Positions 1,390 to 48,261 are shown, counted from the stretch's first letter. The stretch: DNA of 64,000 nucleotides from a virus (IMGVR_UViG_3300032304_001168), one strand, 5' to 3'. Program-made: numbers and translations. The notes: generated by a model from the letters alone, not told the origin.

Positions 1390-1443
1390 GTATAACAAAG
1401 AATATGTGTCATTAAAACGAACACATATTCTCAACCGTTATGT
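1390..1443 (+). repeat. attC-like site (54 bp type)
   Basis: GTATAAC-aa-AGAATATGTGT-cattaaaacga-ACACATATTCT-caacc-GTTATGT. Confidence 0.8.
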
Positions 1444-1510
1444 GTAAGTGTTTCATTCATCATTCTAATCAACATTTCGGTTGAAAATTTTTAAAGAAAA
1501 ATCCATCGCA

Positions 1511-2503
1511 CTATTTTTTAATTACTAAATAATTTTTATTTTCTTTATTTGAATATAACTCATATTTTGGGTTAGTTGAAACAAGTTCATCATTATTTGG
1601 TTTAACATCAAAATATTCATCATTTTTTTCATTATAACCCATAATTTTATATTTACCATATAACTTAACCCATAATTTTCTTGCTTCTGGTGTTTGCATT
1701 TTATCTGAATATAATATAGTTTTATTTATAATATAGTCATACGCCTTTGTCGCAACACCTAAACCCCTTGCTGTGTCTTTAACGCCAAGTGTTGATATTT
1801 TATATCCATTATGAAATTTATTTAACCCTACATAACCAATAGGTAAATCATCATTATATATAATTAATTTAACACCATCACTATTTTCAGCCCATTGAAA
1901 CCCTAGCCCAGAGAATTTATCAATTGATTTCGTTATTTTATCTGCTTCACCCTTCGCCCAATCCACAAATTCATTGTAATCAATTTTACCACCTACTAAA
2001 GAAGTGGTTCTCTTGATTTCATTAATTGGGTTATAATTTAGTGGTAATGGGTAATTACCTTGTTCCAAATTTTTAGAATCCCAAAATTCAGTTTTTAATT
2101 TTATATTATCCCAAAAATTGTTTTCTTTATCTAAAAAATTTTTAATTAAATAAATTGCCGAAATTCTATGAGCACCATCTTGTAAACTACCATCAACCAC
2201 AATTATCGGTGGTAAATTTTTTGTTGATTTTGGGTTTTTTATTATATAATTAGCATATTCTAACACCTTTTTCGTTACACCCCAACTATAATCTTTATCA
2301 ATTACATCACTTAATACCTCTCTATAATAAGGTATATTTTTTATTCTATTTGTAATTTCATCAACAGTTAGAAACTTTATATTAGTTGGTTTAGAATTTT
2401 TCTTAAATTCTGCTGGTTTTCCAGAACTTTCACCAGATTGTGGGATATTCTCATTCAAAAAATCTCTAATTGTGGTTTTAATAAATTGTTTCAAATTTTT
2501 CAT
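1511..2503 (-). CDS. cassette ORF: ParB/Srx-like domain plus GNAT-like acetyltransferase domain, with N-terminal ...FLNE leader
   Basis: LPPIIVVDGSLQDGAHRISA (ParB-like); TLGVKDTARGLGVATKAY (GNAT motif A). Confidence 0.65.
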   Translation of the reverse strand: MKNLKQFIKTTIRDFLNENIPQSGESSGKPAEFKKNSKPTNIKFLTVDEITNRIKNIPYYREVLSDVIDKDYSWGVTKKVLEYANYIIKNPKSTKNLPPIIVVDGSLQDGAHRISAIYLIKNFLDKENNFWDNIKLKTEFWDSKNLEQGNYPLPLNYNPINEIKRTTSLVGGKIDYNEFVDWAKGEADKITKSIDKFSGLGFQWAENSDGVKLIIYNDDLPIGYVGLNKFHNGYKISTLGVKDTARGLGVATKAYDYIINKTILYSDKMQTPEARKLWVKLYGKYKIMGYNEKNDEYFDVKPNNDELVSTNPKYELYSNKENKNYLVIKK

Positions 2504-2613
2504 TGTTTTCTTTTATATAAATATTAAGATTTAAAAAAACCACACTTCTTTTTCTTTTAAATTTTTTGTTTAGTTCTTCGATTAAACATTCTACCTTAAT
2601 TAACCACACCTAC

Positions 2614-2707
2614 ACATAACAAGGTGTATAAGAAAGTTTGCTATAAAGTTTAGTGGTAATTTGAAAGTTCATCTAAGCAAACCTTCTCATACACCCAAAC
2701 GTTATAC
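2614..2707 (+). repeat. attC-like site (94 bp type, near-identical to 49314-49407)
   Basis: ACATAAC-aa-GGTGTATaAGAAaGTTTGCT...AGCAAACcTTCTcATACACC-caaac-GTTATAC. Confidence 0.8.
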
Positions 2708-2713
2708 ACAATA

Positions 2714-2926
2714 TTACGCAACCTCTTCAACAGTTACACCAATCAAAGGATATAATCTAACCATATCAGCAAATTGAGCGTGGTTTACATTCTCAATGTT
2801 TTCACCTACTTGTAATTTAAGTCTACTCAACCTATTAAATGTTGGTGTTGAATTTAATCGTTTTAGTATTTGTTCGTTGGGTATTGTAATTTTTACAGTT
2901 TTAATATTCCTAATTTTATCAATCAT
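2714..2926 (-). CDS. hypothetical protein (distal unit of array 1, no intact attC of its own)
   Basis: 70 aa ORF; only a lone GTATAAC at 2948 follows it. Confidence 0.65.
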   Translation of the reverse strand: MIDKIRNIKTVKITIPNEQILKRLNSTPTFNRLSRLKLQVGENIENVNHAQFADMVRLYPLIGVTVEEVA

Positions 2927-2989
2927 TTCTTTGTAATGTTAATAATAGTATAACCAATCAAACAACCATAAAGTTCCAAGTTTATAATT

Positions 2990-3562
2990 TTATTTTCTAC
3001 CACGAGCTCTTTGGATTTTATATTCCCCAAACGCTTCATTTATTGCAAATGGTATTGGTTCATTATTTTCTTGATGATTCCATTTAGGGTATTTATTTTC
3101 TATTTGAAAATATTGTTTCATAAACACCTCTTCTATACCCTTAGCACTTATTGGAACATAAATTATCTCATTATTGGTTAGTCCTGGTACTTTTACTTCA
3201 ATCAAATCCATATAAACCATATAAACTTCAACTTTGTTTCCTTTATCTAATTCTTCTCTGATTAATAAATTAATGAAAAATCTATTGATACCAGGGTCAT
3301 CTTGACCTGACTTGAGATAAAAATTCATACATCCAGAAATACCATTTTTCGCGGAAGATTGACCAATTTTATAAATTATATTATTGATTACAAATAGATA
3401 AACCAAAGCCAAATGTTCGTTTTTAAGATGTTTGGGGAAATTTTCATCATAGATGAGTTTCAAAGCATTTCTATGTAAGACATAAGAATTACCCTTAAAA
3501 TCAGTTTCTCCTAAAACAATCTGACCAACTCTAATACAATTTTTTGCGATTGTTATATTCAT
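2990..3562 (-). CDS. GIY-YIG nuclease, Hpy188I-like restriction endonuclease family
   Basis: LVYLFVINNIIYKIGQS GIY-YIG hairpin, NRFF...KVEVY, conserved Glu helix, 190 aa. Confidence 0.6.
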   Translation of the reverse strand: MNITIAKNCIRVGQIVLGETDFKGNSYVLHRNALKLIYDENFPKHLKNEHLALVYLFVINNIIYKIGQSSAKNGISGCMNFYLKSGQDDPGINRFFINLLIREELDKGNKVEVYMVYMDLIEVKVPGLTNNEIIYVPISAKGIEEVFMKQYFQIENKYPKWNHQENNEPIPFAINEAFGEYKIQRARGRK

Positions 3563-3618
3563 TATATTATATATTTAAGATTACAAATCTAAAAATAATG
3601 ATAAAATTTTATAAAAAC

Positions 3619-3654
3619 AAAAAAACTCCAATAATTTTTACAATTATCGGAGTT
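3619..3654 (-). terminator. intrinsic terminator
   Basis: AACTCCgATAATTg-taaa-AATTATtGGAGTT followed by a T-run on the minus strand. Confidence 0.65.
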
Positions 3655-3718
3655 CTATATATTGACCAACATAAGAAAGGGAAGTTGGGGATTTGTGAAA
3701 TATAAATATATCGAATTT

Positions 3719-4105
3719 TCAAAAAATCTTATTTATTATAAAAAAAAGTTGATTTTCTACCTTTTTGGGTAAAGTTTTTTTGGTAAACCACTTACACTCC
3801 TCGTGTTCATGCCCATCTTGAGCCTCATCCAAATCAATATTTATCTTTTTATCAATCTCATATAAGAACAAATAGAATTTCATTCTTGACCCACCACTTA
3901 ATGTCGCCACATAATCCAAGTTATCAACAATCTGATATCCAGTTTCTTCCCTAAACTCCCTTATAGCACCATCTTGAATATTCTCGTCTTTCTCCAAATG
4001 TCCTCCAGGAACTGACCAAATACCAGGTAAACTCCCTTTCTGACTTCTTTTGCATAATAAACAATGATTTTTATATTTTAATAAAATACCTGCACAATTT
4101 CCCAT
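3719..4105 (-). CDS. NUDIX hydrolase
   Basis: GGHLEKDENIQDGAIREFREETG Nudix box. Confidence 0.9.
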   Translation of the reverse strand: MGNCAGILLKYKNHCLLCKRSQKGSLPGIWSVPGGHLEKDENIQDGAIREFREETGYQIVDNLDYVATLSGGSRMKFYLFLYEIDKKINIDLDEAQDGHEHEECKWFTKKTLPKKVENQLFFIINKIF

Positions 4106-4131
4106 AATGAATTATTATTATATTTATATAT

Positions 4132-4479
4132 ATGAAGTTAAGTATAAATGACAACATTTTCAAGGTTAAAGTTCAAACATCTCCTGAAGAAACTCAAAAA
4201 GGTATGATGAACAAAACCTTTGACAAAACATTCAATGGAATGTTATTTGTTATGAAAAACCAAGACCATTGTTTTTGGATGAAAAATTGTATTATTCCAT
4301 TGGATATCATATTCATTGATAATGATGTAATAACCAAAATACACCACAATTGTCCTCCTTGTGAAACTAAGAATTGTAAATCATATTGTGGTGAAGGAAA
4401 CTTTATACTTGAAGTTAGAGGTGGAACTTGTAAGAAATTAGACATAAAAAAGGGGGATGTTGTTTCTTTCCCCCTTTAA
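4132..4479 (+). CDS. DUF192 family protein
   Basis: KGMM...GMLF...FWMKNCIIPLDIIFID...ILEVRGG. Confidence 0.85.
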   Translation: MKLSINDNIFKVKVQTSPEETQKGMMNKTFDKTFNGMLFVMKNQDHCFWMKNCIIPLDIIFIDNDVITKIHHNCPPCETKNCKSYCGEGNFILEVRGGTCKKLDIKKGDVVSFPL

Positions 4480-4481
4480 TC

Positions 4482-6152
4482 TTAACCTTTTATTGTTTTA
4501 TTTATCAAATTTCTAAAATAGTTTTCATTAACATTTTCACTTTGTATCATTTGAATTAATTTAGCCTTAAATGATTCTGCAATTCGTTTAACAAATGCAA
4601 CATATGGTGTTTCATCTTTCTTAACACCAAACGGATTATATTTGGTTATTTTAACAACAATACCATCTTCAACTTTGACAACTCTTCTCATTGTATCAAT
4701 ATAGTATAAACCATTGTCCAAAGGTTGTTTTTTCCCTCGTTTCATTTTAAATAACGAAGCATTAAGTTCTATATTTTCAATAATTAAATCATTAATATCA
4801 ACTTTAATAATCTTATCTTCATCATCAGTTTTTCTAGGGGCTTTTTGTTCTTTTTTTGGTGGTCTTTTAGACCTAACCAAATAATTTAAACCTGAAATAT
4901 TGGTTATACATTTATGTCCACCACTATTTCTAAGTACAATATTCCAACCACTTATAAAAATATTATCTAATATTTCTTTTTCTTCGTCAGATAATTTATC
5001 AAAATGTTGATTCATTATATTTTGTAATTCCTTTTCACTTACATCTTCATCTTGGATTACATAATCATTACCATACAATGCTTTTAAATCTCTATATGTG
5101 AAACCAATTGATTCTTCAGTAAACCCTGGGTCACTTTCCGAAATCCATTTTAAAGATGATAGACTAACTTTAATATTTTTAAGTTCAGTTTCAAATTCAC
5201 TCAATACTTCATCTTTGACTTCACCTAAATTAACACCTTTCAATGCTCTATCTGTCTTAAATGGATTACAAGATACTTGAACCATCCCCATTGGAAATGC
5301 TGTTATTAAGAAATCACCCTCTGGATTATTAATGAATGGGGTATATCTATCATAAGAACCTTTTTTTCCAATATAACCTAATCCATATTGGAAGATAATT
5401 TTATCTTCAACATCAATGTCTTTATCTGTTTTTCTATTTTCAATATAATCAATTTGATTTTGTAATAATTCTTCAGATTTTTCATCAAAACTACCACCAA
5501 TTAATTCTTTTATTTTCAAATAAAGATTTATTGCGGATGGGGTACAGTCCAATACTAATGTTTCCAAAAATTTATCCTTACTTTTGAATGTCAATAACCA
5601 TTTATTAACAATAAACATAAGCATAAATCTATTCTTAGTACTAGAATTTCTAAAATTAAAGTTTAGAATATCTTGTGGTGTAATATTATATCTAATAAAA
5701 TCCGCACTATCAATTGTTGATATTGCTAAAATATCAGTTCCATAAAATAAATCGTTTGGGGATATTACATCAGATACTGTTTTGACATTTGACCTTGAAT
5801 GCGAAAATTGTTTTGATTTGGTGAATTCTGCCCCAGCTTGTGTATCGTGGTGGTCGGTATGAATTAAAAACATAGGTTTACCATGTGCAAAATCTACCAA
5901 TACCGGCATAATTTCACCACTAGCATCTGGTTTCTTAACCGCAAATTCTGATGTTCCATATTGTATAACTTCGGCATCTACTATTTCAATCCCATATCTT
6001 TCCAAATATTTTTTCATGGCTAAAGCCGTAGTAACCCCATCTAGTCAAAGGTCCTGATGAAAGTAGATCTTCGCTTTTTTGTAACGAAGTGCAAGAGAAT
6101 TAATATCTCTTATTCCACTTTCAATCAGGACTATTTTTTGTTTTTTAGTCAT
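4482..6152 (-). CDS. DHH-family phosphoesterase-like protein; in-frame TGA at 6045-6047 inside the N-terminal motif
   Basis: Upstream in-frame segment MTKKQK...IYFHQDL*LDGVTTALA joins ORF 4482-6017; motifs VDFAH, TDHH, IDSAD, GGH. Confidence 0.7.
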
Positions 6153-6211: not shown

Positions 6212-7033
6212 TTATTTGATATTTTTAAAAATATGTGTTATAACATCTATAGTCCACCCATTCCCAAGTAATTTAAACCTTTCGGTGTTTGAAACTCCTC
6301 TAGTATAATTTAATGGCATTGTTTGTAATAGTTCACAATCTTGTGGTGTATATTTGTATATCTGACCTAATTCATTTTTACAATAAGATGAAATCTGTCC
6401 TTTATACATTGATGCTGTTAAACAAGATGCTTTATCACTATATGACTTAACAACATCCTTTCTTGTTCCCCTACCATAAAAAGGTAAATCTAAATAGTTT
6501 GGATATTTGTCCTTAAATTCTGGAGAGATAATATCACAAATATTTAATCCCAAGTCTTTTGGTTGTGTTATATTTGGGATATTTGTCCAATATAACCTTG
6601 GTCTATTTTGAGCTGAAACCAATCTACTATTAATCTTAATCGGTTTGACACCAAGGTGTTCAGTGATTACATCTTGCCATTCTTCTCTCATTACAACATT
6701 CTCCAATAAAAAATATTTTGGTTTAACTTCTTTTAATAGTCTAACATACTCAAAGAATAATTTACTCCTTGGGTCATTGAAATTCAATTGTTTCCCTACC
6801 TTTGAAAATCCTTGGCAAGGCGACCCACCTATGAGAAGGTCTATTGGTGGTAAATCACTTCCTTTAATTTCTGTTATATCACCCAATTGAATTGTGTTGG
6901 GATAATTTTGTTGTGTAACCTTAATTGAACTTTTATCAATCTCGGATGCAAAATACTTATCATATTTTATTCTAATTCTATTTAGGGCAATTTGACCACA
7001 ACTTAACCCATCAAAAAGACTTAATACATTCAT
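6212..7033 (-). CDS. dcm: DNA (cytosine-5) methyltransferase
   Basis: SLFDG, GGSPCQ, LLENV, QNRPR, GNGW motifs. Confidence 0.93.
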   Translation of the reverse strand: MNVLSLFDGLSCGQIALNRIRIKYDKYFASEIDKSSIKVTQQNYPNTIQLGDITEIKGSDLPPIDLLIGGSPCQGFSKVGKQLNFNDPRSKLFFEYVRLLKEVKPKYFLLENVVMREEWQDVITEHLGVKPIKINSRLVSAQNRPRLYWTNIPNITQPKDLGLNICDIISPEFKDKYPNYLDLPFYGRGTRKDVVKSYSDKASCLTASMYKGQISSYCKNELGQIYKYTPQDCELLQTMPLNYTRGVSNTERFKLLGNGWTIDVITHIFKNIK

Positions 7034-7851
7034 AATTTAATATTTTTAAAAATATGTGCAATTACATCAACAGTCCAACCATTGCCAATCATTTTGTATC
7101 TTTCTGTGTTACTAACAACAGATGTATACCCTTCTGGTATTGTCTGTAATTTCTCAAATTCAGTTGGGTTTAATAATCTACATAAAGTTTTATCCTCGTT
7201 GAAGAGATATTGATTTGTGTGACAATTCTTGGTGGTTAAACAATTTGATTTCTCATTCTTAACCCAATTAGGATTTTTATTTATTCTTTCTTTTGTTCCC
7301 CATTTATTATAAAAACATTTTGGTATTTCTCTAAACTTGTCATCAGTTAATACATCAGATAGTTTAATCTTCTTATCTTCAGGTTGGGTTATGTTTGGAA
7401 TGTTTGTCCAATATAATCTGTCCCTATTTTGACCAGATACTAGATTACTATTAATTCTTATAGGTTCAACACCCATTTCCTTTGTGATGATGTCTTCCCA
7501 TTCTTTTTTCATCTTTACATTTTCAAGTAAAAAATATTTGGGCTGAACTTCATTTAGGACTCTAACAAATTCCCAAAATAAACCACTCTTTCCATCAAAA
7601 CCTGTTCTGTTACCTGCTGATGAAAAACTTTGACAAGGACTCCCACCAAATAAGATATCTATTTTTGGTAAATCAGAACCTTTGATATTATTAATATTAC
7701 CTAACTGAATCGTGTTAGGATAGTTGTGTTGAGTTACTTTAATTGCGTGAACATCAATCTCAGAAGCATAATAGTTATCGTAACTAATCCCAACTTTATT
7801 TAAAGCGATTTGGCCACAACTTAACCCATCAAACAAACTCAGTACATTCAT
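7030..7851 (-). CDS. dcm: DNA (cytosine-5) methyltransferase
   Basis: SLFDG, GGSPCQ, LLENV, QNRDR, GNGW motifs. Confidence 0.93.
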   Translation of the reverse strand: MNVLSLFDGLSCGQIALNKVGISYDNYYASEIDVHAIKVTQHNYPNTIQLGNINNIKGSDLPKIDILFGGSPCQSFSSAGNRTGFDGKSGLFWEFVRVLNEVQPKYFLLENVKMKKEWEDIITKEMGVEPIRINSNLVSGQNRDRLYWTNIPNITQPEDKKIKLSDVLTDDKFREIPKCFYNKWGTKERINKNPNWVKNEKSNCLTTKNCHTNQYLFNEDKTLCRLLNPTEFEKLQTIPEGYTSVVSNTERYKMIGNGWTVDVIAHIFKNIKL

Positions 7852-8918
7852 AATTCTATGTTTTTAAATATATGTGTTATTACATCAACTGTCCATCCAT
7901 TACCTAACATCTTTCTTGCTTGACTATCACTTACAACATTAGTATATCCATCAGGTATTGTTTGTAGTCTTTCCATTTCAATTCGATAAAGTTTTCTGTA
8001 TTTCCAAGTTGGGTCAACAATATAATCCAATGGACTTTCAACGGTAACTAAACAATTTCCTTTGTTATTTTTATTTGGGACATACATCTTAAATTCTTTA
8101 CTCCTTGGAGTTGAATCTCTACCAGTTTCAATTCTTATTTTTCTCCTCATTTCTTTACCCTCCTTAGTTCTAGTTTCATAAAATGAAAATGGTACTTCGT
8201 TTGATAAATCTATATTAACTCTTTTTCCATTATTAGCATATAGTGTTACAATACCATCATCATTAATGGTTATAGGACTACCATAAGATTTAGTTAATGA
8301 ATCTATTTTTTCATCAATAGTCATATTACAGGGGTCATCAACAATGATATCTTTTAAAGTAATTTCTTTGTCTATTGGTTGATTAATATTTGGAATATTA
8401 GTCCAATATAATCTTCTTCTATTTTGGGCCGATACCAAAGTTGAGTTTATTTCAATTGGTTCTAATCCCAATACATTGTTTATTATGGTTTCCCACTTCT
8501 TTAACATTTTAACATTTTCTAATAAAAAATATTTTGGTTTAACTTCTTTTAATAGTCTTACATATTCCCAAAACAAATATGATTGTCCTTGAAAGTTAAA
8601 TCCATTTCTTTTTAAATCCAAATATTGTTCTAATGTTAATATTTCAATATCTTCTTTTGTTGACATCCCTTTCATCTTACCAGCAAATGAAAGATTTTGA
8701 CAGGGTAATCCACCACACATTAATGTAATTGTTGGTAAATCACTCCCATTTATTTGTGTAATATCCCCCAATTGAATCGTGTTAGGATAGTTGTGTTGGG
8801 TTACTTTGATACTATGTTTATCTACCTCAGATGCGTAATAATTATCATATTTAATTCCAGCACGATTCAATGCGATTTGTCCACAACTCATCCCATCAAA
8901 AAGACTCAGTACATTCAT
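7848..8918 (-). CDS. dcm: DNA (cytosine-5) methyltransferase with longer variable region
   Basis: SLFDG, GGLPCQ, LLENV, QNRRR, GNGW motifs. Confidence 0.92.
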   Translation of the reverse strand: MNVLSLFDGMSCGQIALNRAGIKYDNYYASEVDKHSIKVTQHNYPNTIQLGDITQINGSDLPTITLMCGGLPCQNLSFAGKMKGMSTKEDIEILTLEQYLDLKRNGFNFQGQSYLFWEYVRLLKEVKPKYFLLENVKMLKKWETIINNVLGLEPIEINSTLVSAQNRRRLYWTNIPNINQPIDKEITLKDIIVDDPCNMTIDEKIDSLTKSYGSPITINDDGIVTLYANNGKRVNIDLSNEVPFSFYETRTKEGKEMRRKIRIETGRDSTPRSKEFKMYVPNKNNKGNCLVTVESPLDYIVDPTWKYRKLYRIEMERLQTIPDGYTNVVSDSQARKMLGNGWTVDVITHIFKNIEL

Positions 8919-16498: not shown

Positions 16499-17257
16499 TT
16501 AGTAGACAAATGTTTCGGCCAATTCCCAAAGTTTGGTGTTCATTTGGTTTGTTGCCATAATGTTTTTCAAACCTTTTAGGGATGTTTTGCGGCCAGTTTG
16601 ACTTATGTACTCAAGACCACCTCTAACAAATCTCTCCTGAAGGATATTGAATGTTGTCCAAAGGTCATCGTTGTTGTCTCCAAGTCTTTGAGGAGTAATC
16701 AATTCCTCCAATTCCTCATAATCAAGGAATGGTACTGAACCCATTCCCCACTTGATGATTGAAGCACTTTTTGCAAAGTCGATTTTCTCACCTTCGGTCA
16801 ACATTCTATCCATCATCTTATCAACTGAGTTTTGTATGATGGGGAGTTTCGTTGCAAAACTCTCGGTCAATCTTTTGACTTCTTCTGAGTCAAATCCCAT
16901 ATGTCTCACATTGAATTGCTCTGCTGTAGAAGTGGGCACAGTCAAACCATTGCTACATACAAGGCGGAATAATCCAGCACCCACTGTTAGAGTGGTCATA
17001 CCATTATGTGAGTTTTTAACAATGGCTTCAACCAAGGTGTCTCCAACCGCAGGTAGTTCACCATTTCTAAATCTCAATTCGTGTATACCATAAAGACCAG
17101 TACCATTCTGTTTTACGGATTTAAGTTCCCAACCCTCGTTGGTGAATTTCTCCATAATATCAATCGTTGGTACGAATGAATATTTTTTAGACATTTTTGG
17201 GTCAGCTGAAGTTGTGAATACTGCTGGGGCGATAGACTTAATTTCTTGGATTGTCAT
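16499..17257 (-). CDS. DUF932/DUF945 family protein
   Basis: APAVF, YSFVPT, NSHNG, GLFRLVCSNGL, LWTTFNILQE. Confidence 0.85.
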   Translation of the reverse strand: MTIQEIKSIAPAVFTTSADPKMSKKYSFVPTIDIMEKFTNEGWELKSVKQNGTGLYGIHELRFRNGELPAVGDTLVEAIVKNSHNGMTTLTVGAGLFRLVCSNGLTVPTSTAEQFNVRHMGFDSEEVKRLTESFATKLPIIQNSVDKMMDRMLTEGEKIDFAKSASIIKWGMGSVPFLDYEELEELITPQRLGDNNDDLWTTFNILQERFVRGGLEYISQTGRKTSLKGLKNIMATNQMNTKLWELAETFVY

Positions 17258-32157: not shown

Positions 32158-34527
32158 TTATTGTTTTACACTACTAATATTGTTTTCTTTAGATATTTTA
32201 ACCACGTTGTCCGCCCAATTACTTACAAGTGGATTATGGGTGATGACAAATATCTTTTCAAAATAGTTCTTGATTTTAATAAAAAATTCACCAACCATAT
32301 CCAAGTTCTCATTTGATATCTTTCCAAACACCTCGTCAAACACCACCAGGTTGGGTTTTGGTAATGAACTAATCTTACTTAACACCGCTCTCAATGCTAA
32401 TGATGCTATGGTTCTCTCATAACCCGATCCTGATGACATAAGTTTCTCAACCTGGGTATTATTATCAATCATCAAAAATTCAACCTCATTCTTATCATTA
32501 ATATTAATCTCCAATCTAAAATGACAACTATCTTCCAGCAACCTCTGTAACTCAGAATTCAACATTGGAATCATTGTTTTCATTATTGTCTTAGATATTC
32601 CATTCTTTCCAAAGATTTCCAAATATAACTTATATATTTTTTCCTTTTCAGATTCTTCCTTTATTTTTTCAATTTTTTGAAGATTATCTTTAATCTTATC
32701 TTTTAAACTATCAATTTGATAATTGTTAGAATCAATGATTCTCTGTACAGATACTTTTTCTCTATCCAATTCATCAATTCTCAGATTGGCTTTGATAAGT
32801 TGGGTTTCAATTTTGTTATTGGTGGATATTTTATCTTGTAACAAATTGAATTTTTCCAACTTATCTTCCAACCCTTTGATTTTCATCTCATAACCCTCAA
32901 TTGTAAGTTCATATTTTTCTTTGATAAGTTTGTTTTTCTCATACTCATCAAATTCTTTTTTCAATAGAACATACTTAGCTTCTCTGACTATTATATTAGA
33001 CATTAACCCCTCAAATTCAACTTTTTGACTATTATAATAGTCAAGTTCTGCTATCTTGTTTTGAGTTATTGATGCGGTTATTAATTCAATTCCACAATGT
33101 TCACATTTAATTCCCCCATCAACTGAAGACTTTAATTCTTCAATCGAATTGATTGTTTGTTCAACTTGAACAATCTTTTTATAGTATAGTTTGTGTTCAT
33201 CTTTTATCCAGTCGTGTTCTTGTTCCGAGTAAAACTCTGTAGGTTCAACTACTTTGAGTTCTTTTAATTGTCTTTCAACACTTTGTTTTTGGGTTTTTAT
33301 TCCCATAATTTCACTTTCAATACGTTCAGGAACAATATTGGAGATTTCAACATCAATATCCGTGTGTTTGGATTTTAATAATCCATCTCTATATTCTTGT
33401 CCTTTGATTATTCTGTTTTGAACATCAATAAGATTGTTTTGTTGGGTTATATTATCTGTTGTTAATTCTTGGATTCTTGAATTATAACCATCATTATCTG
33501 ATTTCAATTTCTCACTGGAATATACATTTGACAACATTGATTTTGAGAAGTCAGAATATATTTCTTTTGCAAGTTCTTCTTTCTTTTTGAGAAAGTCTAA
33601 CCCCATAAATTTTGATAATACTTGACCTCTTGCTGTTGGTTTGGAGTCAATCAAATCTTCAAGATTTGTTGCTGTTGTTAAGATTGTCATCAAGAAATCA
33701 TCTTTTGTTCCAATTGATGTTTTGATGAAATTCTCTGTTTCCCTCCTTTGTTCACCAGTAAAGTTTTGTAATGACCCATCGGATAATTTCTTATAAAAAT
33801 CCAATTCGGTTTTTACATTCCAAGTATCATCTTTCTTCTTCTTTCTTTCAATGTTTCTAATGATTACATATTCTTCCCCATCAATGATAATTTCACCTTT
33901 GACGTGGACTTTATCTTGAGTTGAGAATCTATTAAAAATTTCTTCAGCTTTTGTTGTCTTGGTGGTTTCATTGAAGAATAGGAATAACAATAGGTCAACG
34001 GTTAAAACTGTTTTCCCACCAAAATTTGCTGGATCTGATTCAACCACAGATATTCCATTACATTTTTCAAAATCTATTTTTTGATTTTGTCCATAAGATA
34101 AGAAATTGGAGAATTCAATATTTTTGATATACCATTTTTTGAATGGGGTAATATCTTCATCTGTCAATAATCTATTATCAACAATTCTATCTAGATTAAA
34201 GATTTCATCAGATAATTGATTTTGATTTTTGGAATCGAGATATGATTTAACCAATTCATATTGATAATTTTTATCCAAGATATTAAAGGAAACATCAACC
34301 GAGTGATTGGTTGTTTCTGTTATTTTTGTTTTGGTAATTACATTAACATTGGTTGAATTGTATTTTTTTTGGAAGTAATGTTTGATGCTCTTTATTTTTT
34401 CTTGTGTAAAGTTTTCAGCATAATCTTCCCATATTACCTGGATGTATGGATTATCAAACTTGGTAAAATCTATATCTTTAATCATATAATTGTAATTGTA
34501 TTCTATTGGTGGATTGAATAAATCCAT
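32158..34527 (-). CDS. sbcC: SbcC/Rad50 (gp46-like) recombination ATPase
   Basis: NFLSYG, NFGGKT Walker A, CEHC hook, SGSGYE signature, FDEVFG, ITH. Confidence 0.92.
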   Translation of the reverse strand: MDLFNPPIEYNYNYMIKDIDFTKFDNPYIQVIWEDYAENFTQEKIKSIKHYFQKKYNSTNVNVITKTKITETTNHSVDVSFNILDKNYQYELVKSYLDSKNQNQLSDEIFNLDRIVDNRLLTDEDITPFKKWYIKNIEFSNFLSYGQNQKIDFEKCNGISVVESDPANFGGKTVLTVDLLLFLFFNETTKTTKAEEIFNRFSTQDKVHVKGEIIIDGEEYVIIRNIERKKKKDDTWNVKTELDFYKKLSDGSLQNFTGEQRRETENFIKTSIGTKDDFLMTILTTATNLEDLIDSKPTARGQVLSKFMGLDFLKKKEELAKEIYSDFSKSMLSNVYSSEKLKSDNDGYNSRIQELTTDNITQQNNLIDVQNRIIKGQEYRDGLLKSKHTDIDVEISNIVPERIESEIMGIKTQKQSVERQLKELKVVEPTEFYSEQEHDWIKDEHKLYYKKIVQVEQTINSIEELKSSVDGGIKCEHCGIELITASITQNKIAELDYYNSQKVEFEGLMSNIIVREAKYVLLKKEFDEYEKNKLIKEKYELTIEGYEMKIKGLEDKLEKFNLLQDKISTNNKIETQLIKANLRIDELDREKVSVQRIIDSNNYQIDSLKDKIKDNLQKIEKIKEESEKEKIYKLYLEIFGKNGISKTIMKTMIPMLNSELQRLLEDSCHFRLEININDKNEVEFLMIDNNTQVEKLMSSGSGYERTIASLALRAVLSKISSLPKPNLVVFDEVFGKISNENLDMVGEFFIKIKNYFEKIFVITHNPLVSNWADNVVKISKENNISSVKQ

Positions 34528-34566: not shown

Positions 34567-34591
34567 AGGTGTGTATATATTTTAGTTATGT
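34567..34591 (+). other. attI-like site 2 (no adjacent integrase)
   Basis: AGGTGTgtATATATTtTAGTTATGT, same spacing as 1121 and 47195. Confidence 0.6.
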
Positions 34592-34608
34592 GTAATAAAA
34601 AACTAAAA

Positions 34609-35093: not shown

Positions 35094-35178
35094 ACATAAC
35101 AACAAATATAAGAAATAAATTTTGATTTATCTATTTTTTATAGGTAAAATTTACTTCTCATATTTGCAACCGTTAGCG
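35094..35178 (+). repeat. attC-like site (85 bp)
   Basis: ACATAAC-aa-CAAATATaAGAA...TTCTcATATTTG-caacc-GTTAGCG. Confidence 0.75.
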
Positions 35179-37995: not shown

Positions 37996-37996
37996 T

Positions 37997-38871: not shown

Positions 38872-38877
38872 AACTTT

Positions 38878-39210
38878 CTATTTTTTTGGTTTTAATTCGT
38901 TTTCTATTAGTTTCATTATATCTCTAGTGAGAGAACCTGCAGTTTTAGTTCCATCAATATTCCACTTAATAATAAGTGTTTCAATTTCTGAGTAGAGTGA
39001 TTGTTTATTAACAACATTATGTTCTATGTCAAGTTTCTCTCTTTCTATCTCTTCAACTTTTAGTATTTTACAATCTTCAATGTTAGAACATTCTAACATT
39101 TCTTCTTTCCACTTTTTTAAAGTTTCCAAATCGGTGGTTTCTCTATAACCAATAGTATAATGGTCATTTCTTTCATCTAAGATGAGACCTATGTATTTTT
39201 CTTTATTCAT
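38878..39210 (-). CDS. hypothetical protein
   Basis: ORF track. Confidence 0.55.
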   Translation of the reverse strand: MNKEKYIGLILDERNDHYTIGYRETTDLETLKKWKEEMLECSNIEDCKILKVEEIEREKLDIEHNVVNKQSLYSEIETLIIKWNIDGTKTAGSLTRDIMKLIENELKPKK

Positions 39211-42987: not shown

Positions 42988-42990
42988 AAT

Positions 42991-43797
42991 TTATTTTTTA
43001 TGTTTATTTAAAAATTCATTTATTTCTTGTCTTGTAACATTAATTCCTTTATGACCTAACTCTTCGATATATTTACTACCTAATTCGGATGGAATTAACA
43101 TTGAACGAAGTGCCACAGAAAAATCACCATCTTCAGCTCTTTGTTTTTCTAAAAAAAATAAGTTACTATAAGGATTAATTGTCTCTATATGGTTTGGATG
43201 AGTTAATTCTACCTCATCATTTTTTTTGATTTCAAACACCCCTCTAATCATTACACCCCTTTCACCTTTAATTTGATAATCTTGTGGTGAATCCAAAATG
43301 TTATCCAATGTTTGATGTAATTTTTTTCTTATACTTTTATATCTTTCATTTTCAGCATCCTCAATCATACTAGGACTTCCAAGACCATAAATTGCTTCGT
43401 CTTGTAATGTTTCAGGTTCAAACTCTATGATAATTTTCTTTTTTAATGTCAATGTTGATGGGTCAACTATTGCAGGAGTGATTGATGCACCATCTTTAAC
43501 CAAATCATTAATTTTATTTGGGTCAAACATTTCAGGTGTTAAAAAAATTGAGTGGAGATAACATTTACCTTTAAAAGATGTGTTGTCATCTACTTTAAAA
43601 GTTTGAGTCATCTTTGTTTTCCCATTTTCATCTTGAAACACTGGTTCTTTTATGATAATTAATTCATCACAATTTTGCAATTCCTCACATTCTTTTAATA
43701 AATCAATCATTACTGATAATTCATCTCCTCTGATAATTTCATCAGATAATTCATTTCCTTTGATAATTTTATTCTTAATTAATTCTTTTAATTTCAT
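42991..43797 (-). CDS. hypothetical protein
   Basis: 268 aa ORF. Confidence 0.6.
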   Translation of the reverse strand: MKLKELIKNKIIKGNELSDEIIRGDELSVMIDLLKECEELQNCDELIIIKEPVFQDENGKTKMTQTFKVDDNTSFKGKCYLHSIFLTPEMFDPNKINDLVKDGASITPAIVDPSTLTLKKKIIIEFEPETLQDEAIYGLGSPSMIEDAENERYKSIRKKLHQTLDNILDSPQDYQIKGERGVMIRGVFEIKKNDEVELTHPNHIETINPYSNLFFLEKQRAEDGDFSVALRSMLIPSELGSKYIEELGHKGINVTRQEINEFLNKHKK

Positions 43798-43798
43798 A

Positions 43799-44089
43799 TT
43801 AAAATTTATTTTCTTTTATTGAGTTTATACCCTCCTCCAAAATATGACAAATTTTTTTTAAATTGTCAATAGTGAAGTCAGTTAAATTAAACCACTCCCT
43901 CTCAATATTATGTTGTTTGAATCTAAAATGTAAGGCTTTTTCTAGTTGGGTGGGGTACTTCGACTCAAATTCAAGAATAACACTTAAATTTGGTGAATTC
44001 AACTCTTTTAACCTCTTTTGTACATCTCTTTTTGTGTACCCTATTTTAACTTGGTCAGAATTGTCTTTGACAAAGTAAACAAATCCCAC
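43799..44089 (-). CDS. T5orf172/MUG113-type GIY-YIG domain protein
   Basis: GFVYFV...VKIGYT...RLKELN...LEKALH...EWF. Confidence 0.85.
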   Translation of the reverse strand: MGFVYFVKDNSDQVKIGYTKRDVQKRLKELNSPNLSVILEFESKYPTQLEKALHFRFKQHNIEREWFNLTDFTIDNLKKICHILEEGINSIKENKF

Positions 44090-44144
44090 TATCTTTTTTA
44101 GTTAAAAATAGTGGGACTTTGTAAAAGTTAAATGTTAAAAAACT

Positions 44145-44468
44145 TTATAAGAATTTTGGATTAGTTCCAATATAATTACCATCATCATCTAAATCTTCAA
44201 ATGGTGGTAATTCAATATCAACATATCCAACTTCTTTATAATTTATTTCACCATCTTCATCAACACTCGCCAAACCAAGTGTTATTAGATTTTCATATTC
44301 CAAATTACTGAGTGGAATATCATAATCACCAATCATTGACCACATTTCATTGGCAATATCAATGTTTTCTTGAACTGGATTGTTTGCCAACACTTCAAAT
44401 ATTCTTTCAAATATTTCTGTACCACTTCTATCTGCCATATTATATATTATCTTTTTTATAGGTTTCAT
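44145..44468 (-). CDS. hypothetical protein
   Basis: MKPIKKIIY... acidic. Confidence 0.55.
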   Translation of the reverse strand: MKPIKKIIYNMADRSGTEIFERIFEVLANNPVQENIDIANEMWSMIGDYDIPLSNLEYENLITLGLASVDEDGEINYKEVGYVDIELPPFEDLDDDGNYIGTNPKFL

Positions 44469-44673
44469 TGTAATAGGTTTCACTTTCTGTAAACATTGAA
44501 TTAGGATAATAATAATCTTCACTATTAACACCAGCATTAAAAGCATTTTCTATCTGCTGTTTTTCAAGTTCAAGAGCTTGTTGAAATTTACCGTGCAATT
44601 CAATAGATACACCAAATGGAATATATTTACCTAAATCGGGTATGTTTTCAGTTAACCATTCTACTGCTGTCAT
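44440..44673 (-). CDS. hypothetical phage protein (TAVEWL...EKQQI family)
   Basis: MTAVEWL...ELEKQQIENAF...YYNETY. Confidence 0.65.
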   Translation of the reverse strand: MTAVEWLTENIPDLGKYIPFGVSIELHGKFQQALELEKQQIENAFNAGVNSEDYYYPNSMFTESETYYNETYKKDNI

Positions 44674-45170
44674 AAGTTATTTTTTAAATTTGAACCCTTC
44701 ATAAATACAGCACCAGTATTGGATACCAATTTTTCAAGTTGTTCAATCTTGTTATTTAATTCAATTATTGTTTTATCTTTCTCCCCAATCTCTTTTCTGA
44801 GTTTCATTAATGTCTCTTGTAACATTCCCATCTTATCATTTGGTTTCTCAACTTGTACAATTTTTTCCACTATCTTCTCAACTTCAATAGGAACTTGCAC
44901 AATTTTTTCTACTATAACCTCATTTGTGGAAAATATTTTCTGCTCAACTACCACTTCTTTTATTACCTCAACAATGACTTCCTTTTCAATGTATTCGATA
45001 ACTCTCTCATTATTTTCTCCTATTAATCCATATTTTTTTATATCAAATCCTTGTTTGAAACATTGTTGGAAAAATATCTCAACATCTTCAATATTGTTTA
45101 ACTTACAATAATCAGTTAAATCTTTTTGATTTTGTTTGTTAAGCGTTAGTGAGTTTTTCTTTTCCATCAA
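44670..45170 (-). CDS. hypothetical protein with VEKIV repeats and coiled coil
   Basis: EVIVEKIVQVPIEVEKIVEKIV. Confidence 0.6.
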   Translation of the reverse strand: MMEKKNSLTLNKQNQKDLTDYCKLNNIEDVEIFFQQCFKQGFDIKKYGLIGENNERVIEYIEKEVIVEVIKEVVVEQKIFSTNEVIVEKIVQVPIEVEKIVEKIVQVEKPNDKMGMLQETLMKLRKEIGEKDKTIIELNNKIEQLEKLVSNTGAVFMKGSNLKNNL

Positions 45171-45366
45171 TTATATCTTCAAATGAATTTATTGCAAATT
45201 TAAGAAAAGGTTTTGGATTATCCAAATCAACAAATGAATATTCATCCTTAACCACATCATAAATTCCAAATCCGTGATTCTTAATTGACTCCCCATAGTT
45301 CTGTTGGATTGTTGAACCCACTTGAATTATTGGTATTTTTCTTTTTATTTTAATTTTTCTATCCAC
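45139..45366 (-). CDS. sbcD: SbcD/Mre11 nuclease C-terminal fragment (split gene)
   Basis: IPIIQVGSTIQQNYGES...HGFGIYDV, the segment that normally follows GDIH. Confidence 0.75.
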   Translation of the reverse strand: MDRKIKIKRKIPIIQVGSTIQQNYGESIKNHGFGIYDVVKDEYSFVDLDNPKPFLKFAINSFEDIIDGKEKLTNA

Positions 45367-46211
45367 TCTGTTATGTTTTTATATTTTTTTTGATTTTTGG
45401 GTAAGAAAAAATTCATTTCATATTTTAAATTATTTTCTTTACAAAATTTTATAGTTTCTTGTATTTGGGCTTTAATTCTTTCCTCTTCTAATATGAGTCC
45501 TTTAATTTCTTCTAATACTTTTTTTCCATCCTTGTACAAAATTAAAAAATCAGGTAAATAATTTCTTTTTAATCCTCCAAAATCATATTTGATAGATATT
45601 TTGTGTTTTTTTGTCCAAAATATAACTTTTTCATCCTCATTAAGTTCTATCATTCTTTTTTGCTCCCAAGATGAATGGTAAAATTCATTTTCATTTGTTG
45701 TAGTGTTTAATATAAACCCTCTTTTATGATTACCATTTCTTTCATTTTCACTTTCTTTTATTAATCTTTCAATATTTTTTAAAGAAATATTTTCCCTAAA
45801 TTCTTTAGTATGCCAATCCATAGAACCATTAGATAATCGGTGTCTGTCAAAAAAAATTAAATGTTTCTCTAATCTTTCTTTTTTTCTCCAACTATCTTTA
45901 ACTTTTTCTTTTATCTTTTTTTTAGCATCATCAGTATGTTTAAACATGCCAGGTTTCCTATTACCAAAATTACCATTTTTTTCCCCTAATTGTGAGAATT
46001 TTTGCCACTCAACTTGACACAATCTACTACAAAATTTTTTTTTGGAGTTAGGTAATTTTATAAAATTATTTGTACATCCACTAAATTCACAATTTACTTC
46101 AATTTTGATTTGTTTCTTTTCACATTGACCACAAATTTTAGAGCAATATTTTTGTTTTTCCCTTCTAGGTTTGAAATCTAAATTACAACAATCGCATTTT
46201 TTATTTTCCAT
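45345..46211 (-). CDS. free-standing homing endonuclease (Zn-ribbons, NUMOD3-like, TnsA-N-like PD-(D/E)XK)
   Basis: KYCSKIC/KFCSRLC, GEKNGNFG, YHSSWE...YLPDFLI...EEIKG. Confidence 0.8.
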   Translation of the reverse strand: MENKKCDCCNLDFKPRREKQKYCSKICGQCEKKQIKIEVNCEFSGCTNNFIKLPNSKKKFCSRLCQVEWQKFSQLGEKNGNFGNRKPGMFKHTDDAKKKIKEKVKDSWRKKERLEKHLIFFDRHRLSNGSMDWHTKEFRENISLKNIERLIKESENERNGNHKRGFILNTTTNENEFYHSSWEQKRMIELNEDEKVIFWTKKHKISIKYDFGGLKRNYLPDFLILYKDGKKVLEEIKGLILEEERIKAQIQETIKFCKENNLKYEMNFFLPKNQKKYKNITEWIEKLK

Positions 46212-46253
46212 ATTTATATTTTTAAGTATAAATATAAATATCACCAAAAAACA

Positions 46254-46898
46254 CTAAATCACAATTTCCCAACCTTTTTTCAAATAAAAATCTAAATCTT
46301 TTTCATCAATTTCTATTTCTCTTTCTAAATAAATTGTTTGTCTGCGATGTATATCCCCACATAGAACGATATCACATCCCTCAAATTTACTCACCTCATA
46401 TCCTGTTTCAAACTTATATCCAATGTCTGTATATAACCCTATAATAGGTCCGTGAAACAATCCAATTTTAAGGTTATTAGATTTCTCAATTGTTGGGGGA
46501 ATATTGTGTTCAAATAAAGAATATACAACCCAATCAATATTCTCATCAACATATACACCTCTATCTTTGTAATAGACAATGTTATCATTATTCATTGATT
46601 CAATGATGGGGGTTAATGTATCCAATCTTGATAAATTGTTCTCAAGCATATCATGATTTCCAACAATGATTATTGTTTTTGCAATCTTGGAACATTTATC
46701 TAATGTCCATCTAACCATTTCAATAAGTTCTGGGCTGACTTGGTTTTTACTATGGACTAGGTCGCCACTGAATACCAGTCTATCAGGTTTAATCTCTTTG
46801 AATTGATTAAACATATCAATCAATATTGATTTGTATAAATCGTGGTCTTTTATTAATCTCAAATGTAAATCAGAGAAGTGACAGATTGTTTTTATCAT
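46254..46898 (-). CDS. sbcD: SbcD/Mre11 (gp47-like) metallophosphoesterase N-terminal fragment
   Basis: SDLH, GDLVH, GNHD, FHG, GDIH. Confidence 0.9.
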   Translation of the reverse strand: MIKTICHFSDLHLRLIKDHDLYKSILIDMFNQFKEIKPDRLVFSGDLVHSKNQVSPELIEMVRWTLDKCSKIAKTIIIVGNHDMLENNLSRLDTLTPIIESMNNDNIVYYKDRGVYVDENIDWVVYSLFEHNIPPTIEKSNNLKIGLFHGPIIGLYTDIGYKFETGYEVSKFEGCDIVLCGDIHRRQTIYLEREIEIDEKDLDFYLKKGWEIVI

Positions 46899-47134
46899 TT
46901 CAGTTTTTGTTTTGATTTAATAATATTCACCAATTCTTCTTTTATTTCGTTTTGAATATCCTCATCAATATTTCCCCACCAACCATCAAAACCACCTCTA
47001 TCACATAGAGCATCAATAATTTCATTTACAATTTCTTTTTCCATTTTATTTATTTTTTTCTTCCATCAAATACAACAATCATACTAAATCAGAGAAGTGA
47101 CAGATTGTTTTTATCATTTCAGTTTTTGTTTTGA
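46866..47134 (+). repeat. 50-bp direct repeat (46866-46915 and 47085-47134) containing the sbcD start
   Basis: TAAATCAGAGAAGTGACAGATTGTTTTTATCATTTCAGTTTTTGTTTTGA present twice. Confidence 0.9.
46895..47044 (-). CDS. small hypothetical protein (49 aa, not in ORF track)
   Basis: MEKEIVNEIIDALCDRGGFDGWWGNIDEDIQNEIKEEL...; ATGA-coupled to sbcD. Confidence 0.6.
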   Translation of the reverse strand: MEKEIVNEIIDALCDRGGFDGWWGNIDEDIQNEIKEELVNIIKSKQKLK

Positions 47135-47154
47135 ATTTCGTAATAGTTTCCCAT
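47134..47154 (-). pseudogene. remnant of integrase 5' end
   Basis: MGNYYEI versus MKKTNYYEI of 287-1087, with homologous upstream DNA. Confidence 0.65.
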
Positions 47155-47194
47155 TTTTACCTCTTAAATCATTGATTATTTGAGGTTTTAAAAT

Positions 47195-47219
47195 AGGTGT
47201 TGATATATTATAGTTATAC
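47195..47219 (+). other. attI-like site 3
   Basis: AGGTGTTGATATATTATAGTTATAC, one mismatch to 1121-1145. Confidence 0.75.
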
Positions 47220-47231
47220 TCAATTAAAAAA

Positions 47232-47378
47232 TTATTTTGAGTTATATAATATATTCCATTCAGTATATGTATTTGATAATAATTCTTCTATTGTAATCCC
47301 AAATCTTATACAATCACCTAAACATATTTTGTAAAAATTCACACTTCTTTCGTTTATTATATATTCTGAAAATGTCAT
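47232..47378 (-). CDS. cassette ORF, hypothetical (48 aa, not in ORF track)
   Basis: MTFSEYIINERSVNFYKICLG...ILYNSK*. Confidence 0.6.
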   Translation of the reverse strand: MTFSEYIINERSVNFYKICLGDCIRFGITIEELLSNTYTEWNILYNSK

Positions 47379-47416
47379 ATTTGTATTTTTAATTTGTAAA
47401 ATAATTTTTTAACTAA

Positions 47417-47470
47417 GTATAACAAAGTGTAAAAAACATTAAAACTATTTTTTACACTCAACCGTTATGT
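47417..47470 (+). repeat. attC-like site (54 bp type)
   Basis: GTATAAC-aa-AGTGTAAAAAA-cattaaaacta-TTTTTTACACT-caacc-GTTATGT. Confidence 0.8.
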
Positions 47471-47474
47471 GTAA

Positions 47475-47792
47475 TTAAACAGAGAAACCCTCGTTAATCA
47501 AATATTTTGTTATTGAATGATGGTTGCTCAATGGTCTGTGTTCAATTGAAATATGTCCTTTGTTGTTTTTCCAAGTCCAAGTATGGTCAACTTCTAATTC
47601 TGAATTTACAGATAAACCATATTCAATTGTATGATAGTTATCAGATACAACACAATCTTCTACTTTAAATACAGCAATAATAAAATCTTTTTCAGGTGTC
47701 CATTCAACTTTACCAGCATTACAAGGTTTTCCGATAATCAAAGAGTATATCTGATTAATGTTTTCTATTGTTAAATCTTTTATCGTTTTCAT
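47475..47792 (-). CDS. cassette ORF, hypothetical
   Basis: MKTIKDLTIEN...; start chosen downstream of the attC-borne promoter. Confidence 0.65.
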   Translation of the reverse strand: MKTIKDLTIENINQIYSLIIGKPCNAGKVEWTPEKDFIIAVFKVEDCVVSDNYHTIEYGLSVNSELEVDHTWTWKNNKGHISIEHRPLSNHHSITKYLINEGFSV

Positions 47793-47816
47793 AAATTTTT
47801 CGTTTAAATTAACTAC

Positions 47817-47910
47817 ACATAACAAGGTGTATATGTAATTTTTTTACAAAGGTACGAATAAGTTTTGACATTTCCAAATAAAAAACTACATATACACCCA
47901 TACGTTATAA
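47817..47910 (+). repeat. attC-like site with internal promoter
   Basis: ACATAAC-aa-GGTGTATATGTA...TACATATACACC-catac-GTTATAA. Confidence 0.8.
47847..47878 (-). promoter_or_regulatory. Bacteroidota promoter inside attC loop
   Basis: TTTG-N20-TACCTTTG. Confidence 0.75.
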
Positions 47911-47922
47911 GCAATATTATTT

Positions 47923-48165
47923 TTATTTTGAGTATCTATTTTTAAAATCCTCAAATGCTTCTAAAATTGTGTTTCCCACACCATAGTTCACATGTTCCCA
48001 TTCTTCTTTCATAAAGTGATGTGGGTCATATTGCCACTCTTCGTTTCCTTCAAGTGAGTTTACACAATCAGCATCACAACATGTTTCTACAATAGCAAAT
48101 TTACCGTGTCTCATGTGAACTATGGTCATTGGGTAAATGTCTTCAATTTTGTTTATATTCTTCAT
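47923..48165 (-). CDS. cassette ORF, hypothetical
   Basis: 80 aa between cassette inverted repeats. Confidence 0.65.
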   Translation of the reverse strand: MKNINKIEDIYPMTIVHMRHGKFAIVETCCDADCVNSLEGNEEWQYDPHHFMKEEWEHVNYGVGNTILEAFEDFKNRYSK

Positions 48166-48207
48166 AATTTTAAGTTTTTTAAATCGGTAAAATAAAAATA
48201 ATACAGC

Positions 48208-48261
48208 TTATAACAACAAATATATTGCATTAAAACGACAATATATTTGCAACCGTTATGT
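48208..48261 (+). repeat. attC-like site (54 bp type)
   Basis: TTATAAC-aa-CAAATATATTG-cattaaaacga-CAATATATTTG-caacc-GTTATGT. Confidence 0.8.

Follow-up and report, generated by a model that had tools for sequence, protein, structure and literature searches.

Integron recombination is held to depend on an IntI-specific domain that reads the extrahelical bases in a hairpin whose unpaired spacer is symmetric. In attC sites, the unpaired central spacer usually measures 5–6 nucleotides (nt) per arm and is not conserved in sequence, extrahelical bases lie near L'', and the bottom strand is favored in folding by 2.12 kcal/mol (Nivina 2016, PMC5027507). Canonical attC clusters were also described in phages (Qi et al. 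2023, PMC9892861). The subject here is a set of attC-like hairpins in a 64,000-nt stretch of viral DNA (IMGVR_UViG_3300032304_001168; "the window" denotes this whole stretch). The window is DNA of a large freshwater phage, with genes for a virion structural protein (phrog_1645, E 3e-143), a primase, and an SbcC-like nuclease. Judged from their sequence and arrangement, the hairpins probably serve as recombination sites in an integron-like gene-cassette system that the phage carries and that relies on a compact Xer-like tyrosine recombinase. A literature search on integron-like systems of jumbo phages and on attC-like phage hairpins returned no description of the present system.

The initial annotation had singled out three 54-nt sites on the plus strand (1390–1443, 47417–47470, and 48208–48261) with a common loop and differing stems, and this description was borne out. 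All three have the layout ATAAC-AA-(11 nt)-CATTAAAAC(G/T)A-(11 nt)-CAACC-GTTAT, and an upstream flank of ~30 nt is also common to them. The 11-base pair (bp) stems differ (AGAATATGTGT at 1390, AGTGTAAAAAA at 47417, and CAAATATATTG at 48208), and the return arm is exactly complementary each time. A mechanical scan of the window located 10 sites on the plus strand, grouped in three arrays, all of them between minus-strand genes; the surrounding DNA is 28% G+C. Array 1 contains the short-class hairpin at 1390–1443 and a 94-nt-class hairpin at 2614–2707, and array 2 consists of a single 85-nt hairpin at 35094–35178. In array 3, the short-class hairpins at 47417–47470 and 48208–48261 are accompanied by a 94-nt-class hairpin with a 12-bp outer stem (47817–47910), a 93-nt hairpin (48518–48610), a 94-nt hairpin with 88% identity to 2614–2707 (49314–49407), a 214-nt hairpin (49509–49722), and, as the final site of the array, a 120-nt hairpin (49908–50027). 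The spacing AAC-2 nt-stem...stem-5 nt-GTT, said to be followed by nearly all sites, is present in nine of the 10. The remaining site, 49509–49722, has the additional A on the right arm that had also been reported, giving 2/6 spacing and the right spacer AGAACC. Covariance model R1, which was built on the short class and detects only that class rather than serving as a general detector, scored 72.7, 70.2, and 75 bits at 1390, 47417, and 48208, respectively; the short sites thus reach 70–75 bits on the plus strand versus 12 on the other strand. An Rfam scan of the window gave zero matches.

The spacing geometry was examined across the window and 63 related loci from IMG/VR (contigs up to 464 kb), 1.04 Mb in all. 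Sites of the form TAAC-s1-(perfect stem of at least 7 bp)...-s2-GTTA were tabulated for s1 and s2 from 0 to 8, and the resulting 9×9 matrix is dominated by the (2,5) cell with 115 sites, followed by (1,5) with 33, (2,4) with 14, and (2,6) with 9; every other cell holds 0–6. A relaxed scan recovered about 237 sites, 122 of which have spacers of 2 and 5. In 63% of these sites the right arm exceeds the left by 3 nt; the excess is 4 nt in 26% and 2 nt in 11%. The asymmetry had been described as fixed; the longer arm is indeed always the right one, but because its excess ranges from 2 to 4 nt among the 237 sites, the 2/5 asymmetry is modal. TAAC and GTTA are invariant in all sites; one base further out, the left side has A (73%) or C and the right side T (66%) or G. 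The profile of 107 distinct (2,5) sites reads TAAC, A (100%), A (82%), three free stem positions, and then R-T-A-W; position 8 of the stem is often an A·C mismatch, and the right spacer C (89%)-R-R-M-C (95%) leads into GTTA. An additional family, TAAC-A-GCACCTA...TAGCTGC-AAACC-GTTA, falls outside the stem criterion because its stem position 4 is a conserved C·C mismatch; it was seen in loci L002 (flipped 11032), L016, L017, L033, L046, L051, and L003. Defining sites by box complementarity alone (at least 9/10) was also tried and abandoned as too noisy, about half of the candidates being stemless, although it was this approach that brought the C·C family to light.

Compensatory variation of the stems was proposed initially from the three window sites, and in the larger set the covariation is strong (scores of 0.40–0.48 versus 0.11–0.12 after shuffling in two alignments). 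Alignment A1 comprises 30 distinct 54-nt short sites, without gaps, in which the 11-bp stem is 99.1% paired; two-sided change occurs in nine of the 11 stem pairs and one-sided change in none. Its covariation score of 0.402 compares with 0.124 for shuffled alignments, 0 of 500 of which reached the observed value, and controls with a slid frame gave at most 0.077. For the 55 distinct 94-nt-class sites in alignment A2, RNAalifold predicted the outer stem, 10 of 11 pairs change on both sides, and the score was 0.483 versus 0.114 for shuffled alignments (0 of 500). A census anchored on the loop motif, with no pairing requirement, gave a similar picture: the copies standing in the array frame have perfect stems of 11–12 bp, of five types, with three exceptions (one a hybrid of two stem types), and the ~35 copies outside arrays have stems of 0–3 bp. 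Stem positions 9–12, which lie outside the search requirement, are paired in 70–95% of cases versus 32–43% expected from column composition. The suggestion that selection acts on structure rather than on sequence therefore stands in part. Pairing is kept by two-sided change in A1, A2, and the loop census, but sequence is constrained too, at stem positions 4–7 (R-T-A-W), in the spacers (A-A and C-R-R-M-C), and in the conserved loop.

Two observations concern the loop of the short class. In locus L019 (~16846–16900, flipped), a short-class site has arms of different stem types (CAAATAAAACA and TTGTTTATCAT) and is unpaired; it is possibly the product of an exchange within the loop. The 11-nt loop CATTAAAACGA can also be all that separates a right box from the left box that follows it (GTTAnnnnn-loop-nnnnnTAAC), so that one loop closes the inward stem as well as the outward box helix. 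Such loop-only units were seen in L016 (reverse strand, ~10850 flipped), L063, L006, L045, L032, and L024 (for comparison, the loop stands at 1410, 47437, and 48228 in the window). They look like "empty cassettes," and two of them lie directly at the attI-like site.

The gene next to array 1 (P0001, 287–1087, minus strand) encodes a 266-amino acid (aa) tyrosine recombinase with the Pfam domains Phage_integrase and Phage_int_SAM_4. Among NCBIfam models, the archaeal XerA type fits it best, although the 179 bits stay under the cutoff of 220. The integron-integrase model TIGR02249 gave 154 bits, under its cutoff of 265, in a match split into two pieces. In a comparison with VchIntIA (2a3v), residues 18–177 and 211–261 of the phage enzyme align to residues 17–180 and 262–312, and the IntI-specific region is represented by 33 residues in the phage recombinase versus 81 in IntI (~48 fewer). 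Because the integrase match is split and below cutoff and the IntI-specific domain is absent, the enzyme is classified as Xer-like and not as an IntI; as far as the sequence of this adjoining recombinase tells, the window hairpins are not the attC sites of an IntI. Close relatives (77–96% identity, nearly all of 266 aa) are abundant in metagenomes, on contigs up to 354 kb. The isolated phages with the closest homologues (37–40% identity), Polaribacter phage Freya and Cellulophaga phage Ingeline, were considered as models and rejected, having no arrays beside the gene.

The hairpins are tied to this gene in position and orientation. Sites occur almost exclusively upstream of the recombinase gene start (180 on that side versus 4 on the other), 36 of 40 loci have a site no more than 2.5 kb upstream of the start, and 175 of 177 sites point the same way with respect to the gene. 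An attI-like site without a hairpin lies between the recombinase gene and the first hairpin, at 1109–1148 on the plus strand. It is located 22–61 nt upstream of the recombinase start, ends in the box GTTATACTCA (1139–1148), which has 8-nt complementarity to the left box of the first hairpin, and is 94% identical to 47183–47253. A second attI-like site (34568–34594, plus strand) stands directly upstream of the start of the SbcC-like gene, and its box GTTATGTGTA (34585–34594) is complementary in 10/10 nt to the left box of hairpin 35094. The third (47183–47222, plus strand) again carries the box GTTATACTCA (47213–47222). In related loci, an attI-like motif TATATAT-N2-3-TA|GTTA is found 30–110 nt upstream of the recombinase start, with the arrays behind it. 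The window thus has three attI-like sites versus one recombinase gene.

The units between hairpins have matching ends. Across the gene, the outer bases of a right box and of the next left box complement each other in 124 of 158 cases where 16 were expected, and the match is usually exactly 10 nt. Across the hairpin, by comparison, all three outer box bases pair in 19 of 212 cases, which is the null level (~16/158). The across-gene pairing is the footprint expected of unit exchange at the TAAC/GTTA core, as in integrons. The longest open reading frame lies on the opposite strand and runs toward the attI-like site and recombinase gene in 147 of the 158 units, and cassette bodies are almost all unique, with one homologous pair among 158 at the DNA level. 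Homology with metagenome sequences breaks at C|GTTA or just after GTTA(T) (48254, 48258, 47908, and 49400); one lake-metagenome contig matches the left box, hairpin, and GTTAT of 47817–47910 and then diverges. Lake-water metagenomes from 17 studies pile up in depth on hairpins and fall to near zero on cassette bodies. The combination of abundant hairpins and rare bodies therefore suggests that a few hairpin families are common to many other cassettes in nature. The depth of contigs from other studies over 47100–50100 was tens to hundreds per hairpin, with a maximum of 972 at 49322–49422, where the 94-nt hairpin at 49314–49407 lies, and zero or near zero on most cassette bodies. Short joints in metagenome contigs (sides of 21–31 nt) resemble assembly paths through repeated hairpins and were left unused.

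The mobile unit is favored, although not proven, to be a gene together with the hairpin at its 5' end, which is the higher-coordinate side in the window. The left outer box takes 57 distinct values and the right outer box 81, the left one being in closer linkage with the hairpin core; two ParB-like cassettes have the higher-side hairpin in common, and a lake-metagenome contig carries the unit 49411–49508 and hairpin 49509–49722 behind a different hairpin. A protein comparison that included the hairpins also favored the higher-side hairpin but is biased by hairpin-encoded leaders. The plus strand is likewise the favored candidate for the "top" strand, given the attI-like site on the recombinase side and the arrangement TAAC-A...C-GTTA, which corresponds to the non-bottom strand of the attC oligonucleotides of Qi et al. 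In the favored model, cassette genes would point toward the attI-like site, opposite to integrons, because the hairpin lies 5' of the gene.

Folding of the two DNA strands gave different structures at the asymmetric spacers. The plus strand forms the stem only, with a 2×5 loop. In the complementary strand, G·T wobbles close both ends of this loop, resulting in TAAC-G(3 nt)G-stem...stem-TT-GTTA with a 3-nt bulge. The bases that flank the loop are A/C next to the box in 184 of 201 sites and A/C next to the stem in 76 of 124, and single mismatches inside stems are A (left)·C (right) in 198 of 226. Of 201 sites, 188 have the more stable fold on the complementary strand, and the mean advantage of that strand is 2.06 kcal/mol. 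When 81 cassette junctions were rebuilt with their own 10-bp boxes, the box helix formed on both strands every time, the plus strand showed the 2×5 loop in 36 of 37 cases, and the minus strand showed the 3-nt bulge in 28 of 37. Both ends of the loop carry conserved A/C juxtapositions, which turn into G·T wobbles on the complement; the 2×5 loop is therefore predicted to collapse there, and in these folding models a 3-nt bulge between G·T wobbles on the complementary strand is the better description of the asymmetry.

A mechanism can be proposed from this anatomy. On the plus strand, a site opens with a box whose last bases are TAAC and continues with 2 nt (mostly AA), a stem of 7–12 bp or more that is free in sequence apart from R-T-A-W at positions 4–7, a variable terminal part of 11 to ~200 nt, the return arm, a 5-nt spacer (consensus C-R-R-M-C), and a box that begins with GTTA. 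The site would be read as a folded single strand, and the reactive strand would be the complement of the given strand, on which the 2×5 loop would become a 3-nt bulge on the arm carrying TAA|C. On this minus strand, the C and the 5-nt spacer located 3' of TAA|C would form a 6-nt central region, the usual core spacing of tyrosine recombinases. The bulge and wobbles may replace the symmetric 5–6-nt bubble and extrahelical bases of attC, marking one strand and fixing the orientation of the cassette.

The hairpins share a number of properties with integron attC sites. Both have the AAC/GTT core within TAAC...GTTA, the flanking bases being A...C on one strand and G...T on its complement; in both, pairing is kept with little sequence conservation, and the terminal structure is variable in length. 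A single gene lies between successive sites, cassette ends complement each other rather than pairing across the site, one strand folds better by ~2 kcal/mol, and a hairpin-less attI-like site stands beside the recombinase gene. The geometry differs from the canonical one, as was originally suspected: spacers are 2 versus 5 nt (a 3-nt bulge on the complement) where attC has 5–6 unpaired nt on each arm (PMC5027507). The attC bottom strand carries extrahelical G/T 6 bp apart on the L'' arm, whereas the phage sites show no such conserved single-base bulges; their irregularities are instead A·C mismatches and the 3-nt bulge on the arm carrying TAA|C. The box helix is 10 bp in the phage sites and 7 in attC. 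The box consensus is (A/C)TAAC/GTTA(T/G) versus RYYYAAC/GTTRRRY in attC, and only the minority of phage sites with C/G as the next outward base agree with the latter. Integron cassettes are promoterless and oriented away from attI with attC 3' of the gene, whereas phage genes run toward the attI-like site with the hairpin 5', and the phage recombinase, with its 266 aa, lacks the IntI-specific domain.

One member of the family has already been studied. P12002L_attC1 from Polaribacter phage P12002L (NC_028924, 30005–59) belongs to the phage clusters of attC sites lacking integron integrases (CALINs) that Qi et al. reported in 2023 (PMC9892861). It shares the 11-nt loop CATTAAAACGA and the TAAC-AA...5 nt-GTTA frame with the phage sites described here, and lies between minus-strand genes. 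It scores 53.9 bits with model R1 and adds a sixth stem type. Its publication presented it as an integron attC from a cluster without an integrase and made no link to an Xer-like recombinase or a distinct geometry; P12002L has no such recombinase and only isolated sites. P12002L_attC1 was called by HattCI and missed by INFERNAL, and its cross with attI1 gave no recombinants with IntI1, while the other five of six tested sites worked (PMC9892861). This failure is consistent with a distinct geometry and a different enzyme, although one negative assay carries little weight. The short-site model matched P12002L at two more places, 38876–38939 (35.8 bits), following a DNA methyltransferase gene, and 32220–32284 (26 bits).

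Acinetobacter plasmid pdif modules also resemble the phage cassettes, in that small gene modules lie between inverted XerC/XerD sites and occur in many contexts. Unlike the phage hairpins, pdif sites are conserved double-stranded 11-6-11 sites that lack hairpins and covariation. The two conserved 11-bp arms on either side of a 6–8-bp central region, by which Xer/dif sites are defined, were not found here, the arms being free apart from R-T-A-W and the TAAC/GTTA core. In the CTX phage attP(+)/XerCD reaction, a Xer-type enzyme without the IntI insertion likewise acts on a hairpin, whose paired arms mimic a core site with an incompletely paired central region and in which one strand pair is exchanged. 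There, however, a whole phage genome enters the host dif site by means of host enzymes, neither arrays nor cassettes are involved, and the hairpin arms are sequence-specific XerC and XerD sites, unlike those of the phage-array hairpins.

Several results weigh against assigning the hairpins to a recombinase-driven cassette system. Two of the three arrays in the window are located 34 and 46 kb from its sole recombinase gene. About 20 arrays have a further complementary lone box past the last detected hairpin, protein homology between gene bodies alone gave a mixed, uninformative table on hairpin-gene pairing, and the assignment of hairpins to genes rests on few cases. Stem positions 1–7 were part of the search criterion, a bias from which the loop-anchored census and positions 9–12 are free. 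Matched control segments from cassette bodies also fold better on the minus strand, by 1.03 kcal/mol, so about half of the folding-energy asymmetry reflects base composition. A small number of hairpin families account, by inheritance, for most A·C mismatches, so the 198 cases are not independent events. Finally, the better-folding strand is the mRNA-sense strand, and an identical A·C/G·T bias would be expected from RNA hairpins that tolerate G·U pairs. One alternative explanation lies at the level of RNA: pairing would be selected mainly in transcripts, where the hairpins would act as terminators, processing sites, or stabilizers, and only the TAAC/GTTA boxes would recombine. A mismatch bias of A·C on the plus strand and G·U in the transcript is a classic mark of RNA structure, and every hairpin sits between two co-directional genes. 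Nevertheless, a simple terminator scan gave 0 terminator-like matches at any site in 47000–50200, AT-rich stems with loops of 11 to 200 nt and without a following T-run stand in place of the short GC-rich stem-loop and T-run of an intrinsic terminator, and the spacers are measured from the recombination core, a distance for which a terminator has no need. Canonical attC oligonucleotides also carry the same G...T core flanking on the bottom strand, for which RNA offers no explanation. Selection mainly in RNA is accordingly considered unlikely.

The remaining alternatives differ in what the recombination site would be and in whether the neighboring enzyme has any part in it. If recombination took place at ordinary double-stranded core sites or cruciforms, the right half (arm, 5–6 bp, GTTA box) would be of the 11-6-11 type and the left half a by-product. 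The right arm and 5-nt spacer do match the core spacing of tyrosine recombinases, the hairpin-less attI-like site TATATAT-N-TA|GTTA exists, and the enzyme lacks the IntI domain that Escudero and co-workers linked to single-strand recombination (PMC7790495). Such sites need conserved arms, however, and here stem positions 1–3 and 9–12 vary freely with only the pairing kept; a by-product half would also not keep a fixed 2-nt spacer and conserved A/C flanks. XerCD, moreover, which has no IntI domain, recombines a folded single strand in CTX phage integration (PMC3442271). Because the arms are free and covarying, double-stranded or cruciform recognition appears quite unlikely. That the hairpins are genuine attC sites used by a host integron integrase, the arrays being CALINs and the nearby Xer-like gene unrelated, would fit the TAAC/GTTA core, the cassette-end complementarity, and the A...C flanking in common with attC, as well as the HattCI call on a family member. 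The 2/5 spacers (versus 5–6 nt per arm), the INFERNAL and IntI1 results for P12002L_attC1, a gene orientation opposite to that of integron cassettes, and the tie of position and orientation to the Xer-like gene (180 versus 4 sites; 36/40 loci) make this explanation highly improbable. Least credible is a spread of selfish palindromic repeats, similar to miniature inverted-repeat transposable elements or repetitive extragenic palindromic sequences, through intergenic DNA without involvement of the recombinase. Few hairpin families with many copies, and a lake-metagenome depth concentrated on hairpins with rare cassette bodies, are what such repeats would produce, but nearly all sites have one orientation on one side of the recombinase gene, each unit is bounded by gene-specific 10-nt complementary ends, and homology breaks at the GTTA core.

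Other features of the window were noted alongside the arrays. A blastn search with a 4.8-kb piece against isolated phages gave zero matches. Array 2 begins ~40 nt upstream of the start of the SbcC-like gene (32158–34527, phrog_77, "palindrome specific endonuclease"), and it is curious that a hairpin-cutting nuclease adjoins a hairpin array. Array 3 begins upstream of a Metallophos gene (46254–46898). A 53-nt direct repeat (98% identical) has one copy in the start region of this gene (46866–46918) and a second copy 219 nt further on (47085–47137), directly before the third attI-like site. At 6212–8918, three tandem paralogous genes of ~273–356 aa are spaced by ~820 nt and have 61–76% DNA identity. 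Thr/Pro-rich 12-nt periodic repeats (ACNCCAAC-like) at 54545–55082, 59344–59400, and 61084–61164 lie inside plus-strand genes adjoining the virion structural gene.

Collectively, these data describe a large natural set of sites that retain the AAC/GTT core and cassette logic of integrons and yet combine a regular asymmetry with a recombinase devoid of the IntI-specific domain. A tentative, broader proposal is that an Xer-like recombinase without this domain may carry out integron-type, strand-selective hairpin recombination in Bacteroidota phages, with the strand chosen by a G·T-closed 3-nt bulge and with cassettes that carry their site at the 5' end; the system could be an independent solution or a surviving relative of the integron ancestor. 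This would account for the published negative result with P12002L_attC1 and IntI1. The survey further points to under-detection, by tools calibrated on the canonical geometry of attC, of a cassette system that is common among phages of fresh water and the sea. Should the enzyme act on the folded strand, the phages would provide a compact new pair of site and enzyme for engineering. More fundamentally, such activity would represent a second route to a structure-specific, orientation-controlled recombination site and would bear on the origin of integrons from Xer-like enzymes.

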